DNA from: a virus
Lineage: Duplodnaviria; Caudoviricetes
Virus record (IMG/VR): IMGVR_UViG_3300032093_000702
Coordinates: 1-26,946 of that record
DNA length: 26,946 nucleotides
Direction: 5' to 3' (one strand)
Shown: piece after piece, positions 13,528 through 20,048 of the stretch
How positions within the stretch are numbered: the first letter of the stretch is position 1
Layout of the letters: the number at the start of each line of letters is the position of its first letter
The notes under the pieces: generated by a model
What the model was told of the DNA's origin: nothing
What the model saw: only the letters and a program-made list of their open reading frames with translations
Database searches by the model: none
Made by a program: the position numbers and the translations under genes

Positions 13528-13716
13528 ATGAAAGAGATTATTGCAATTGTGTTGGTCGGCCTACTCGCATTTCCGGGAGCCTATTCTGTAGCTCTGATTG
13601 CAAACGGAGGGGCGGAACTGGAGCGGGCAATGGTCGAAGAAATGCAGGAAGAGGCACGGCAAAAGGATCTTGAGCTATATCTGTCGATCAAGCCAGAACA
13701 CAGGTGGCAGCAGTGA
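13528..13716 (+). CDS. Small membrane or signal-anchored protein
   Basis: MKEIIAIVLVGLLAFPGAYSVALIA hydrophobic N-terminus; GGAG upstream; GTGA overlap with next gene. Confidence 0.55.
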   Translation: MKEIIAIVLVGLLAFPGAYSVALIANGGAELERAMVEEMQEEARQKDLELYLSIKPEHRWQQ

Positions 13717-15860
13717 GGCAGCTCTTCGGAAGAATGCACGACATAGCATCAGGCGCGGCCGGTCTGCCAGTCGAAACGGCCCAACGTTATCGAGAGCAGT
13801 GGTCGGCAGAAGGCTACACGCTTCCGGAGTACGACGAAACAGCGGCGGCCAGAGTGATCGATCCACAGAACCGCCCCGGCGATGTCCTGCATGGAATTCT
13901 GCGAGAAGAACACGGGTTCAAGGTCGCTTCATGCAGGTGTCAGGTGTGGATCGACAAGATGAATACCTGGGGGCCGTCCGGATGCAGAGAGCATTTGACG
14001 GAGATCGTCGAACACCTTTACGACGAGGCTTCAACGAATCCGCAAGTCAGCCAAGCGATTCGGCTCGGCTTAAAGGTGCCAGTCATTGGACCGATCGAAG
14101 GCAGGCGAAGAATTACGGCGATTGTCAGGAGAGCGATTGAGATGGCAGAGACCGCCCCGAACCGAAACACCACTCAAGACGAACTGGCGATTCGTTTGGC
14201 TTCACCCGCGCACAAATGGCCCGCAGGTTGGCGAGACTGGCCGAACGTGATCGAGTATCACCGGGAGCTGCTGAAGGCGGAACTCGGAAGAAAGTCACAA
14301 GAAAGTCGGATCGATGGCAATTCATCCCGAGCGATTCTCATTCCTGCTGGCGGGCGATGCCAAATTTACGACAAGTCAGCCCCGCAGTTTTACTTCTGGG
14401 GAGCCTATGCCGCTGCTTGGGTTCTGCGGTCGTACGGCTGCACTCTGCCGATCCAGTTCTGGTTCCTTCCAGGCGAGATGAAAGAGATCGAGTTCTGCGA
14501 GCTTCACGCGCGACGAGTGGCGGCAACCTGTCATGTGGTCGATACAAGCGGAATGCGATGCGTGCACGGTTGGCAAATCAAGATCAATGCCATTCTGCAG
14601 AGCGAGTACACCCAGATCATCCATCTGGATGCTGACAACATCGTAACTCGAGATCCGTCGTATCTGTTTGACTGCGAGGCTTTCCCGAAAAATGCGGCAA
14701 TGTTTTGGATGGATAACCCAAACGTGAACGACTTTCACGGGCGAATCATCGAAGATCAGTGGAAGCGAACGGGCTCTGATCGACGGGACCGGATCAACGA
14801 CATCGAGACAGGCCAAATGGTGATCGACAAAATCCGAGGGGCCAAAGCACTACAAATCGTGAAGCACTTCGCGGATCGTGCCGACTATTGGGAAGGCTTT
14901 AACGGTGGCGAACGTGGCGTGTGGTATGGAGACAAAACCTCGTTTCATATGGGGTTCAAGTTGACCGAGACAGCGCATCACATTCAGCCGTGGAACCGGT
15001 GGAATGCTGGCGGGTTCTATGAACACTGCGATCCGTCTGGCGATGTGATCTTCCAGCATGCCTGCCATCGGAAGGGCCATCTGAACAACGGCCATGCAAT
15101 CCAAAACCTGAAGGGGAATCAGCTGATCGAGGAAGCGGCTGCTTTCAAAGGCCCGCTGGAGTTTCTGGACGGATCAATCGAGGATGCTCTTCGCTGCATT
15201 GCTCCGGAGCGATGTTTTGCAATCGAGCCTGATCGGATCAGCCGGGAAACGTGGCTGGATGTGCTCGGCCGGAACGAATACCTACTGGCTCCGACGATCC
15301 CGGCCAATGCCGTCGTGATCGATATCGGGGCAAACTCCGGAGCGTTCAGCTATGCCTGCCTCCGTCGCGGCGCTGGCCTTGTTCGGGCATTCGAGCCGGG
15401 GCCAGTTGCTGAGCTGGCATCGAAGAACTGCGAAGAGTTTGGCGAGCGGTTTGAATTGATCCAGCGAGCCGTCTGGAGGTCTGACGAGCCAGTTGAGTCG
15501 CTGTCATTGGCTCCATCGCATCGAGAAAAGCACTCGGGATCTGTCTCGGCTGTACTGCCAAAAACTGGCCACGCGATTACAGCTGCTGCGATTGATTTGG
15601 ATTCGGTGCTAAGGAGATTTGAGCGGATCCACATTCTGAAGCTGGACTGCGAAGGATCGGAATACCCAATTTTGATGACGTGCACAGAACTGCATCGCGT
15701 CGAATACATTCTGGGCGAGTATCACCACGTTAACGCAGCCTGGTCGATCGATGGGCTAAAGCAACATCTTGACTCGGTTGGATTCGAGGTTTACCGAATC
15801 ATTGCGCACGAAAAGACTCATGGAAACTTTTGGGCACGAAGGAAGTCACCAATCCCCTGA
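13713..15860 (+). CDS. Fusion: Cys-containing N-domain + GT-A glycosyltransferase (GT71/Mnn-like) + FkbM-family methyltransferase
   Basis: 'LRSYGCTLPIQFW', 'GWQIKINAI', 'HLDADN' (DxD), 'ETGQMVIDK', 'YGDK'; then 'VIDIGANSG', 'AFEP', 'LKLDCEGSEY', 'GEYH'. Start GTG at 13713 (overlap) or 13704. Confidence 0.85.
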   Translation: MRQLFGRMHDIASGAAGLPVETAQRYREQWSAEGYTLPEYDETAAARVIDPQNRPGDVLHGILREEHGFKVASCRCQVWIDKMNTWGPSGCREHLTEIVEHLYDEASTNPQVSQAIRLGLKVPVIGPIEGRRRITAIVRRAIEMAETAPNRNTTQDELAIRLASPAHKWPAGWRDWPNVIEYHRELLKAELGRKSQESRIDGNSSRAILIPAGGRCQIYDKSAPQFYFWGAYAAAWVLRSYGCTLPIQFWFLPGEMKEIEFCELHARRVAATCHVVDTSGMRCVHGWQIKINAILQSEYTQIIHLDADNIVTRDPSYLFDCEAFPKNAAMFWMDNPNVNDFHGRIIEDQWKRTGSDRRDRINDIETGQMVIDKIRGAKALQIVKHFADRADYWEGFNGGERGVWYGDKTSFHMGFKLTETAHHIQPWNRWNAGGFYEHCDPSGDVIFQHACHRKGHLNNGHAIQNLKGNQLIEEAAAFKGPLEFLDGSIEDALRCIAPERCFAIEPDRISRETWLDVLGRNEYLLAPTIPANAVVIDIGANSGAFSYACLRRGAGLVRAFEPGPVAELASKNCEEFGERFELIQRAVWRSDEPVESLSLAPSHREKHSGSVSAVLPKTGHAITAAAIDLDSVLRRFERIHILKLDCEGSEYPILMTCTELHRVEYILGEYHHVNAAWSIDGLKQHLDSVGFEVYRIIAHEKTHGNFWARRKSPIP

Positions 15861-15867
15861 AGCGGAT

Positions 15868-15949
15868 AAAAAGCGGCGGGGATGCACAGCATTGGGGGAG
15901 GATGGCAGCACTACCGGGCCATCCTCGCTGTGTTAAATCACCCCGCCGC
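15868..15949 (-). terminator. Long bulged hairpin + U-tract terminating the integrase transcript, at the convergence with the late operon
   Basis: GCGGCGGGG 15873-15881 / CCCCGCCGC 15941-15949, two inner stems, A5 at 15868-15872 (U5 on the - strand). Confidence 0.65.
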
Positions 15950-16837
15950 GAGCCGTTCGGCGGTCATACTTACCAGCCCCTGTGCGGACGGGTCCAGACG
16001 GCGATAGGCTGACAGCAGCGTATCTTCAGACGACTGTGCCGCGCCGAACGATTGCGGAACTCTGACCCGATCCATTGCGGCGGTCAGGATTTCCAAGGCC
16101 GGAACGTAATGGTCCCGCGTGCCAAGACCGTGGCCATGCAGCAGAGCCCCGGCATCTGATGACACCTTCGACCATTCTGTGATGCCTCGGTCCCTGATTT
16201 CGCTGGGAAGTATTCGCGGGATGCTGGCCAGCGTGCAAACTCGCTGCAGTTCGCCCCTCACAATGACCTGCGCGTGATCGTTGCTGCACTTGTAAGGAAG
16301 CCTTACAGGTTGAAGCCATTTGGCAAGCCATTTCGGGGCTGGTATGCGGTGCTTGTGGCCGGTCTTGTTTGCTTCCCAATAGATTGACCTCCAAGCCGGA
16401 TCCACCTTGAGCTGAAGCCGGATTGCATCTTCCAGCCGAATGCCGCACCAATACGTCAGCACAATCAGTTGGCAGGACCACGGAGCCAGCCATTGCCAAA
16501 TTGTGTCGATGTCTGAAATCTCGCACGGTTTGGGATCGGGCTTTGGTTTCTTCACGGTGTTCTGCAGGACCGGGCCGCCAGCATCGATGACGATGGTCCG
16601 CAAATCCTTGACGGCACCTTTTATTGTCCACTCGGGAACCTTGTCACGTCGAGCCGCTTGGATGTACTGCTCAACATGGGCCTGTGTGACCTTGCTGGCT
16701 TCAATTTCGCCCACGACTTCAGCAACTCGCTGACAAGCGTAGATGGGTGTTTTTGCTATTTGTTTGCGGGCACAGTATTCCCGTGCGTGGTCAACGATAT
16801 TCATCGTAGGTTTATCCAGTGACGTGACTCCATTCAC
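15938..16837 (-). CDS. int: Tyrosine integrase (short, divergent)
   Basis: R in 'CGIRLED', K in 'NKTG', 'SEIR' at the HxxR position, 'LHGH', Y in 'TRDHY'; adjacent to attP. Start GTG 16837 or ATG 16804. Confidence 0.85.
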   Translation of the reverse strand: MNGVTSLDKPTMNIVDHAREYCARKQIAKTPIYACQRVAEVVGEIEASKVTQAHVEQYIQAARRDKVPEWTIKGAVKDLRTIVIDAGGPVLQNTVKKPKPDPKPCEISDIDTIWQWLAPWSCQLIVLTYWCGIRLEDAIRLQLKVDPAWRSIYWEANKTGHKHRIPAPKWLAKWLQPVRLPYKCSNDHAQVIVRGELQRVCTLASIPRILPSEIRDRGITEWSKVSSDAGALLHGHGLGTRDHYVPALEILTAAMDRVRVPQSFGAAQSSEDTLLSAYRRLDPSAQGLVSMTAERLAAG

Positions 16838-16955
16838 TGGCGATTAGATATTGATTTGAGTCACCCTATGTTTCGGCAAACTCTTTTGATTTCGTGAACG
16901 TTTTGGATTGTTGAAGATGTGCGGACATTCCCACCTGGTACTAGCGTCGCGCCAC

Positions 16956-17008
16956 CTTCAGGAGCTAGTGGGGTAACTCCCATGGAGGTTCAAGTCCTCT
17001 CTTGCGCA
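16956..17008 (+). other. attP core: 3' half of tRNA-Leu(CAG)
   Basis: Anticodon loop TTCAGGA, 3' stem strand GCTAG, long variable arm, T arm GGAGG-TTCAAGT-CCTCT, acceptor strand CTTGCGC + discriminator A; no 5' half; next to int. Confidence 0.88.
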
Positions 17009-17081
17009 ATCCCCGAGGGTGCAACGGCTGATTGATCGACAAAGTCTGGTCAGCCCGAGCGTCTCACCCCTCGGGTTTTTT
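17009..17081 (+). ncRNA. Candidate antisense sRNA / intrinsic terminator in the tRNA trailer
   Basis: Outer stem CCCGAGGG 17012-17019 / CCCTCGGG 17068-17075, inner stem 17026-17033/17048-17055, T6; loops complementary to 17412-17418 and 17440-17450. Confidence 0.65.
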
Positions 17082-17082
17082 C

Positions 17083-17110
17083 TTGCGTTACTATAGAGAC
17101 ACGCTACACT
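17083..17110 (+). promoter_or_regulatory. Sigma70-like promoter with operator copy 1
   Basis: TTGCGT-N16-TACACT; TATAGAG-ACA-CGCTACA at 17092-17108 overlaps the -10. Confidence 0.6.
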
Positions 17111-17117
17111 TCGGAGC

Positions 17118-17342
17118 ATGATCATGACAGAACAAAAAACCTACTCCGTCAAAGAAGCCGCGAATGAAGTAAGGCTTTCGCGTGCAATCGTATCACGTCT
17201 TTGCCAGCGTGGTTTGATCGGAACGAAGTATGAATTCCCGGAGTTTTCGCAGCATGTGTATCGGCTGAATGAAGACGATCTGGAAACGCTCAGAGACCGC
17301 AAAAAAGACTGGCAGAAAAAACTCAAAAAAAAATCGGCTTAG
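17118..17342 (+). CDS. Small HTH DNA-binding protein (excisionase/MerR-like; possible repressor)
   Basis: 'YSVKEAANEVRLSRAIVSRLCQRGLI'; next to attP; flanked by operators. Start 17118 or 17124. Confidence 0.8.
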   Translation: MIMTEQKTYSVKEAANEVRLSRAIVSRLCQRGLIGTKYEFPEFSQHVYRLNEDDLETLRDRKKDWQKKLKKKSA

Positions 17343-17347
17343 TCGGG

Positions 17348-17376
17348 TTGACACGATTGTAGAGGGTCTCTACAGT
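17348..17376 (+). promoter_or_regulatory. Early promoter with operator copy 2
   Basis: TTGACA-N17-TACAGT; perfect dyad TGTAGAG-GGT-CTCTACA at 17358-17374. Confidence 0.8.
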
Positions 17377-17382
17377 TCCGCC

Positions 17383-17549
17383 CGTGTTGAGTTTACGGAT
17401 AACTGATTCGCGTGAGACCGAATCAGAGATCCATCGAATCAGACTTTGTCACTGGGCCGTCTCGGTCCTTCCGTCACGCATTGATTGCGGTCGGAGATGT
17501 GGCGCAGATGGAATCTGCCTTTCGCATGGAAGGCGATTAACGGTGTTGC
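17383..17549 (+). promoter_or_regulatory. Structured 5' leader of the early operon (putative antisense target)
   Basis: CTGATTCG 17403-17410 can pair with CGAATCAG at 17419 or 17435; CCTTCCGT 17467 / ATGGAAGG 17526 stem. Confidence 0.55.
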
Positions 17550-18029
17550 ATGGCTACATGCACTGTGCAGGAGTATTTCGATACTCTGATGCGAATGCCT
17601 GATCATCAGTTCGTTGCCGGATTCTTGGCTACTAAGAACTTTGAGCCGTTTTCGCTCGATCAGCTCAGCGCCATACTAAAACGGTATGCGTCACTGACAA
17701 TGAGGCCAGGAAAAAAACGGCAGCCAAAACCACAAGAAAGCCTGTACGTAGTCTATTGGATTACCAGCAAAAGCGATCTCAGCATTCCTCTGTACGTTGG
17801 AATGACAAACAAGCCAGCGCAACGATGGAATCAGCACAGAAACGGTTCGCTGCAGTTAGTGCGAATTAAAGACAAGTCTCAGATAACAATGACTGTTGTC
17901 GAGACCATCGTCGGGACGCAGGCACAGGCACTTGCTGCGGAATCAAAGCACATCCTCGCAGCGTTTGCGATAAATCCAAATTTGTACAACCGCACAAACC
18001 CACTGAAGGGTACTGGCGGTGACAAATGA
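17550..18029 (+). CDS. GIY-YIG family nuclease-domain protein
   Basis: 'VVYWI...LYVGMT...QRWNQH...AAE..HI...NPNLYN'. Confidence 0.8.
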   Translation: MATCTVQEYFDTLMRMPDHQFVAGFLATKNFEPFSLDQLSAILKRYASLTMRPGKKRQPKPQESLYVVYWITSKSDLSIPLYVGMTNKPAQRWNQHRNGSLQLVRIKDKSQITMTVVETIVGTQAQALAAESKHILAAFAINPNLYNRTNPLKGTGGDK

Positions 18030-19491: not shown

Positions 19492-19559
19492 GGCCGGTTC
19501 GTCTAGTGGTTAGGGCGGCGGGTTTCTCGCAAACGTTGGTTCGAATCCAACACTGGCCA
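19492..19559 (+). ncRNA. tRNA-like RNA with truncated anticodon arm
   Basis: Acceptor GGCCGGT/ACTGGCC + A, D arm GTCTAGTGGTTAGGGC, T arm GTTGG-TTCGAAT-CCAAC; anticodon arm 13 nt instead of 17. Confidence 0.75.
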
Positions 19560-19784: not shown

Positions 19785-20048
19785 ATGTTGGTACTCGGAA
19801 GGAATTATGGACAGGAAATCATCATGACTGTGGGCGATGAGACAATCATCGTCAAAACGATCGAGATGACTGGTCGACAGGTAAAGCTCGGAATCACAGC
19901 GTCTCAAAACGTCAGAATCGATCGCAAAGAGATTCATGATGCGATCATGGAGACAGGATTCAATCCGGAAGCGAATACGGTGAAGCCCACGGTTATTCGA
20001 ATTGGCGAGCGACTCCCCGGCGAGCTGATGAGGAGAAAGCCGCAATGA
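19785..20048 (+). CDS. csrA: Carbon storage regulator CsrA/RsmA homologue
   Basis: 'MLVLGR..GQEI...GD...V......QVKLGITA..NV.I.R.EI'. Confidence 0.9.
   Translation: MLVLGRNYGQEIIMTVGDETIIVKTIEMTGRQVKLGITASQNVRIDRKEIHDAIMETGFNPEANTVKPTVIRIGERLPGELMRRKPQ

Follow-up and report, generated by a model that had tools for sequence, protein, structure and literature searches.

A probable C4/CI-like two-site antisense RNA behind the attachment-site tRNA of Planctomycetaceae phages, with a possible supply by integration

A virus of lake bacteria, analysed here as a window of 26,946 nucleotides (IMG/VR virus record IMGVR_UViG_3300032093_000702), carries a hairpin RNA between its integrase gene and its early genes, and two short loops of this hairpin are complementary to two sites in the leader of the early operon. 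The two loops and their targets change together in related phages, and that they form a real, conserved two-site antisense system is highly probable. It is also reasonably probable that the hairpin is an antisense RNA of the C4/CI type, with the host tRNA-Leu promoter driving its transcription once the phage is integrated, and that it acts beside an HTH repressor to silence the early lytic operon.

The structural genes lie to the left in the window. The tyrosine integrase is encoded on the minus strand at 15938-16837 (PHROG 1 integrase, E=2.8e-6; 82 homologues), with ATG 16804 as the likely start since most homologues are 288 aa, and the early and replication genes run rightwards from 17550. 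In the region between, the 3' half of a tRNA-Leu(CAG) comes first, then the hairpin and a gene for a 74-aa HTH protein, and last a strong promoter with its leader of about 170 nt. The tRNA half (16956-17008, plus strand) has no encoded CCA, and all 53 nt are identical to host tRNA genes in the Planctomycetaceae/Planctomycetota MAG contigs L089, L100, L107, and L110. Based on this identity in four host loci, the host is a Planctomycetaceae bacterium and the site is attP. The preliminary description had placed the tRNA half directly before the hairpin, and this was correct in all coordinates. The att overlap core TTCAGGA (16957-16963, plus strand) is the anticodon loop of tRNA-Leu CAG; it is kept in all Leu-targeting relatives regardless of the flanking sequence, and we infer that it is the crossover site. 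A tRNA pattern scan using one genome per species found 40 loci, of which 38 are labelled Planctomycetaceae, Planctomycetales or Planctomycetota and two Chitinophaga. L070 and L072 were rejected as chance pattern matches inside coding DNA.

Some other features of the window and its relatives can be mentioned. A 718-aa gene at the end of the structural block (13704-15860) joins a putative mannosyltransferase to an FkbM methyltransferase domain. It is followed by a long branched hairpin at 15875-15950, in the space that separates the integrase stop from the last late-side gene, which has a U-tract only toward the integrase and a sequence that is not conserved among the relatives. The early region contains a second, degenerate tRNA-like gene at 19492-19559, which scores 48.7 bits with the Rfam tRNA model and is not called by ARAGORN. 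Of the 21 Leu-core modules, 14 have a CTAG-containing motif in the attP left arm, 38-39 nt ahead of the core, and after it a hairpin whose sequence varies. In the window this motif is nearer to the core (16941-16946), and the left-arm hairpin appears to have been lost. The motif and hairpin may represent a core-type site for Int in inverted orientation or a structure at the RNA level.

The predicted antisense RNA (17009-17081, plus strand) is composed of a closing stem (17012-17019 with 17068-17075), an inner stem, and a U6 tail. The segment 17012-17075 with its T6 folds with -29.8 kcal/mol (z = -2.84) and none of 200 shuffles folds as well, in agreement with the double-stem hairpin ending in T6 that had been noticed at 17012-17081. 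The sequence GACAAAGTCTG of the apical loop (17038-17048, plus strand) is the exact reverse complement of 17440-17450, while the 3' bulge GTCTCAC (17061-17067, plus strand) is the exact reverse complement of GTGAGAC at 17412-17418. Both complementarities were thus as first described, and the two pairings are nested, so that the targets do stand in the order needed for simultaneous antiparallel pairing. The minimum-energy fold has weak pairs at the last four nucleotides of the 11-mer and at the first G of the 7-mer; the cost of opening is 3.9 kcal/mol for the 11-mer and 2.5 kcal/mol for the 7-mer, to be compared with duplex energies of -15.3 and -9.3. The hairpin is also terminator-like, as a GC-rich stem followed by a U-tract is found both in the window (8 bp and U6) and in 21 of 24 modules. 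A simple terminator scan missed the hairpin in the window because its loop is long. When the leader of the window alone was shuffled, the 11-mer was found in 72 of 20000 sequences and both nested sites in seven of 20000; this test is post hoc, and the real support therefore comes from the relatives.

Related loci were collected by integrase searches of viral and metagenome contigs and by two leader-pattern scans. Twelve of 52 integrase loci were omitted since they had less than 350 nt upstream, L027 was counted, and seven duplicates were merged. The distinct integrase loci with 350 nt or more upstream number 32; hairpin, HTH gene, and leader are all found in 26 of them, while the module is absent from the available sequence in the other six (L045, L046, L050, L053, L058, and L060/L061). 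With L118 added this gives 27 modules, all in related Planctomycetaceae phages. An integrase scan of genome contigs found no relative, and an integrase profile matched 19 of 398 family genomes, where none of the 23 loci had the leader motif or the Leu core. The leader pattern was dropped for the same 398 genomes since the matches listed (142 genomes) were at about the level of the reversed control.

The bulge pairs with its target by seven of seven Watson-Crick pairs in 24 of the 27 modules, the 7-mers being anchored by hand for this count. The modules display 14 distinct bulge/target pairs, with double-sided changes at all seven positions; the pairing is imperfect in L030, L047, and L056. Hand-anchored 7-mers were used because a rule that defines the bulge blind to the target chose the wrong 7-nt segment in part of the class to which the window itself belongs. 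Even so, the target-blind definition gives full pairing in 16 of 24 cognate pairs compared to three of 508 non-cognate ones, and none of 1,000,000 permutations of 12 class representatives with target-blind bulges reached the cognate sum of 71 (mean 35). L057 and L064, in which the 5' part of the RNA abuts a truncated integrase gene (a deletion or a misassembly), add the compensated variants AAGCCTC/GAGGCTT and TTTTCGA/TCGAAAA.

Conservation is higher for the apical pairing than for that of the bulge, yet the apical pairing covaries too. Apical duplexes average -16.5 for cognate and -10.8 for non-cognate combinations (0 of 200,000 permutations). Compensated changes are found in L021, L030, L024/L033, and L057, a matched one-base deletion in L037, and tolerated G-U pairs in L020 and L028. 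The spacing between the two targets is 20-27 nt in 24 of 24 cases and 21 nt in the window. In 14 two-stem relatives, 13 of the 17 consensus pairs in the stems of the RNA have changed on both sides, and the loops stay single-stranded. Since related phages share changes by descent, classes and not rows are the unit of evidence; covariation across classes thus rules out chance and makes both a DNA-site and a terminator-only reading unlikely. Compensatory change had been pointed out as the way to check the complementarities, and both loop/target pairings do change together.

The promoter of the HTH gene (TTGCGT-16-TACACT, 17083-17110, plus strand) is found directly behind the U-tract of the hairpin, and the gene itself at 17118-17342 on the same strand. 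The early promoter (TTGACA-17-TACAGT, 17348-17376, plus strand) was confirmed in front of the leader, as described, with its 17-nt spacer, and the spacer contains a palindromic operator, TGTAGAG-N3-CTCTACA, at 17358-17374. An operator-like copy inside the HTH promoter (17092-17108) matches the inverted early operator at 14 of 17 positions, so that palindromic sequences, putative operators, overlap both promoters. Across the relatives nine operator classes follow the HTH families; these classes were read by eye because of the noise in the operator cross-matrix, where cognate pairs score 11-14 of 16 against a background of about 8-13 and one row is empty. A HTH_3 (Cro/C1-type) domain is found in six of the nine proteins scanned from the HTH slot, that is in six of eight relatives. 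The protein of the window belongs to PHROG 66 and is HTH_17-like, below the cut-off, with no HTH_3/XRE domain in the same scan. Judged from this gene organization the HTH protein is likely to be a repressor; the one in the window is excisionase-like and may have both roles. The preliminary description saw no CI-type repressor in the window and implied that the RNA stands in for one. This part is not supported, as there is an HTH gene with its own promoter and with palindromic operators that track the HTH family, and the RNA is therefore one of two locks and not a substitute for a repressor. The other part of that interpretation, a C4/CI-like two-site antisense RNA acting on the early leader, is upheld by the covariation.

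The position of the RNA suggests where its transcription might start. The closing stem begins 0-4 nt past the tRNA end in 23 of the 27 modules, and this position is kept through retargeting to three tRNA types: Leu-CAG (21 modules, 12 with halves and nine with whole genes), Val-GAC (L025), and Pro-CGG (L062). Terminator stems of host tRNA genes have a median start of 9 nt, and only three of 34 begin at 4 nt or less. Upstream of the host tRNA-Leu genes the pattern TTGNNN-17-TANNNT is found 11-37 nt before the tRNA in all 33 distinct regions. In the attP left arm the rightward promoter scores have a median of 3.9, where the two phage promoters score about 12, and a rightward promoter reaches p<0.05 in only one of 24 arms, the other 23 not being above shuffles. 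No promoter was found between core and hairpin in a scan of the modules for which the training set included host, early, and HTH promoters. The same scan missed the integrase's own promoter in 20 of 22 cases, and thus overlooks weak promoters. Expression driven by integration is likely because the stem lies at the tRNA end, the host promoter is strong, and no promoter was found at attP; judged from these sequence features we find a supply of the RNA that depends on integration moderately probable.

Nine modules (L016, L017, L018, L021, L024, L030, L033, L036, and L038) have a whole tRNA-Leu(CAG) 30-45 nt behind the core in place of the 3' half, and no promoter was found in between. As judged from this arrangement, these modules would represent a form of tRNA-dependent lysogeny relying on the host promoter. 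In L046, L047, L050, and L058 the integrase gene is followed by a bare TTCGGGA core, corresponding to the tRNA-Pro CGG loop, and 4 nt later by TATACT or TAGACT, with no tRNA half; these boxes are possibly part of a promoter that is completed by integration. Integrated copies were searched for in several ways. The hairpin is found at none of 40 host tRNA-Leu loci (attL copy), the attL joint is absent from the contigs of four DNA runs (X1, X5, X7, and X9) in which attP-type and host tRNA pieces are present, and a viral scan for the host tRNA 5' half gave no attL and one unrelated locus, L174.

An alternative is that the RNA represses independently of integration, being transcribed from a weak attP promoter or by late read-through across the integrase gene, and that it helps to establish lysogeny or shuts off the early genes late in infection. 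Some of the relatives speak for this, since the RNA is found away from the tRNA end in two of them: in L056 it lies about 770 nt behind the tRNA half, after inserted genes, and in L047 behind the bare core with its TATACT box. Weak promoters would escape the scan. In the window the late operon is oriented toward attP, and the hairpin at the integrase end lacks a terminator U-tract for transcripts coming from that side, so that read-through may occur. Next to the core many left arms retain a hairpin, variable in sequence, which may also mean that these arms are transcribed. Against this stand the conserved 0-4 nt position at three types of tRNA and the 23 left arms with no rightward promoter above shuffles, and we regard a supply independent of integration as rather unlikely.

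In the leader, the upstream target sits in the loop of a hairpin (17397-17432, plus strand) in the predicted folds of the window and its relatives, which agrees with what was first noted for GTGAGAC. The downstream target overlaps the 5' strand of a second helix, H1 (17447-17452 with 17499-17504; target and helix together 17440-17504, plus strand). H1 closes a three-way junction and is paired at six of six positions in 22 of 22 leaders, in six distinct versions with double-sided changes. The first early gene (17550-18029, plus strand) encodes a GIY-YIG domain protein and is followed by the replication genes on the same strand. This slot is hypervariable in 22 modules and holds, by inspection, ParB-like, HNH-like, ATPase, and other genes in the relatives. 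Although the gene varies, its start codon lies 47-57 nt from the 3' strand of H1, and the targets 100-140 nt upstream of the start codon. In L017 (reverse strand) a second three-way-junction leader with an apical-loop target is found about 670 nt downstream of the first leader, after the first (HNH-like) gene.

The start region of the window (17497-17552, plus strand) could form an alternative helix, 17497-17505 with 17543-17551, which may be functional. With the targets held open the 3' strand of H1 pairs over the start region in many of the minimum-energy folds listed, including that of the window, and the alternative helix beats shuffles at p<0.05 in only six of 19 cases. The cost of opening the start region shifts by a median of only +0.2 kcal/mol when the targets of 22 leaders are held open, with seven leaders going up by more than 1 and two going down by more than 1. 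The output step may be a refolding of the leader that hides the start codon, or termination by Rho, which scores above the cut-off in four of five host MAGs.

The leader contains ANGGA motifs, which we take to be CsrA-type (consensus) sites, at 17508-17512 and 17526-17530. Each of 20 distinct leaders has two to four of them before the first start codon, in all 46 compared to 4.6 expected, a number that is inflated by the Shine-Dalgarno sequence and by the search pattern. A CsrA homologue is encoded in the same early region (19785-20048), and homologues are also found in the flanks of L015 and L030 and, weakly, of L023. The occurrence of these motifs and genes suggests that the leader may be under CsrA control as well.

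The RNA might also activate, its binding opening the leader or preventing early termination, as with IsrK of Gifsy-1, which according to the accessible part of PMC4825925 exposes a ribosome-binding site by binding in trans to its own leader. A U-rich run after the first target hairpin gives it the look of a terminator in some relatives, and the shift in opening energy has no clear sign. However, an RNA that is best supplied by a host promoter in the prophage would then turn on replication genes in the lysogen; the closest topological matches repress, the a2/b2 sites of P1 being annotated as repressing icd-ant translation and CI acting by termination (PMC4825925, accessible part); and the alternative helix covers the start codon in many of the constrained folds listed. 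Repression is favoured by this analogy and by what would be expected of an RNA expressed in a lysogen, and activation appears improbable.

That the hairpin is a mere replacement terminator, and the inverted matches DNA sites for Int, Xis or the repressor or relics of a duplication, would fit the U-tract that ends 21 of 24 hairpins and the fact that replacement terminators are common behind att tRNA fragments, but this reading is largely refuted already and very improbable, given that the 14 matched bulge/target versions do not follow the HTH family (a single HTH family goes with three bulge classes), that G-U pairs and a matched indel occur, that the stems covary around single-stranded loops, that the apical motif is found in none of 39 host tRNA trailers, and that the operators are separate palindromes.

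The repressive antisense RNA proposed here shares with the C4 and CI RNAs an apical loop and a 3' bulge that are complementary to two leader sites in nested order. The C4/CI RNAs are matured by RNase P from a precursor. They lie inside the transcript that they regulate, with target pairs on both sides, while the RNA described here is found upstream of the HTH gene and the early promoter and has a single, downstream target pair. The Rfam models of the C4 clan (RF01695, RF03163; CL00128) gave no match in the window (gathering threshold, and E<=10), in six relatives (E<=5) or in ten three-way-junction loci (E<=10), whereas P1 and P4, used as positive controls, match the covariance models of the clan. 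From its sequence organization, the RNA would seem to work like C4/CI, and it falls outside that Rfam family.

The similarity is closest to the CI RNA of P4 (seqA/seqC), which matches RF01695. The closing stem, apical loop, and 3' bulge are shared, and as in our case a 7-mer displayed in a hairpin loop is the partner of the bulge, and the apical loop finds its partner further downstream. L019 and L027 have exactly the P4 pair, UUCUCAC/GUGAGAA, and the C-GTGAGA loop of the P4 leader is arranged like the target-1 hairpin of the window. According to the accessible part of PMC4825925, P4 CI is processed out of the leader under its control, has targets on both sides, and causes termination. The RNA of the present phages is instead a separate unit behind the att tRNA, with an end in a U-tract, one downstream target pair, and an adjoining gene for an HTH repressor. 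The C4 RNA of P1/P7 (a1b1/a2b2; RF01695, RF03163) has the same nested two-site pairing, the upstream a site being bound by the bulge and the downstream b site by the apical loop, and the extra small hairpin that makes it a three-way junction is also present in ten modules (L020, L023, L025, L028, L030, L044, L047, L056, L062, and L118). C4 acts beside a protein repressor, as our RNA probably does. It is, however, encoded within its own operon, transcribed from the phage promoters P1c4/P2c4, and has its second target just before the icd start, while no phage promoter was found for the RNA described here, and its targets are further from the first start codon. C4 is listed for Proteobacteria and phages in a table of PMC2864571 (accessible part), whereas the hosts of these phages are Planctomycetaceae.

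A likeness to IsrK (RF01394) would be that a prophage RNA refolds a structured leader of its own phage through pairing in trans, but IsrK constitutes the 5' part of its own target and activates, and the present RNA has no Rfam match. Nine of the relatives resemble phages with tRNA-dependent lysogeny, as far as the accessible part of PMC10865867 describes these, in sharing only a short core with the host and carrying a whole tRNA of the same type. The tRNA of Fionnbharth has its own promoter according to the same text, while in our phages 30-45 nt separate the tRNA from the core before it, a stretch in which no promoter was found, and the antisense RNA follows the tRNA. The literature search found no title or abstract opening that describes the arrangement, with most subscription papers lying outside its coverage, and the placement of a C4/CI-type RNA behind an att tRNA is apparently undescribed; c4-2, described in a supplement of PMC5737381, may bear on the novelty. 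Recombination at att is the proposed switch both in our phages and in mycobacteriophage BPs, where immunity is integration-dependent and recombination alters the end of the repressor protein; here it would supply a host promoter to an RNA.

A mechanism can be proposed from these observations. The integrase would recombine at TTCAGGA in the tRNA-Leu(CAG) gene of the host, as the 53-nt identity suggests, and the host promoter would then read through tRNA and hairpin and stop at the U-tract. Processing of the tRNA 3' end would free an RNA of about 70 nt. RNase Z is not supported for this step, as it is above the cut-off in none of five host MAGs; RNase P and RNase E/G are candidates, the latter being above the cut-off in four of the five. 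The bulge would then pair with the loop of the first leader hairpin, and the apical loop with the second site 21 nt further on, two contacts for which both complementarity and covariation have been shown. In what is the weakest step, the second pairing would open H1, the freed strand could cover the first start codon, and the untranslated message could be shortened by Rho. RNA, repressor, operators, and leader would together form one exchangeable immunity cassette. We lean slightly towards the view that integration is the immunity switch in these Planctomycetota phages: a promoterless RNA is plugged into the tRNA unit of the host, works in the prophage only, and is unplugged by excision, while the bulge and the repressor-operator pair set the immunity groups.

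These results extend RNA control of the C4/CI type from Proteobacteria to phages of Planctomycetota, in a form missed by the Rfam models, and the natural lock-and-key variants, at least 14 in number, make the pairing directly testable. Many mobile elements have terminator-like hairpins behind their att tRNA fragments; these are usually set aside as mere replacements for the lost terminator, and the present case gives them a regulatory role. If the capture of the host promoter is true, it would be a simple means for a phage to sense its own integration.
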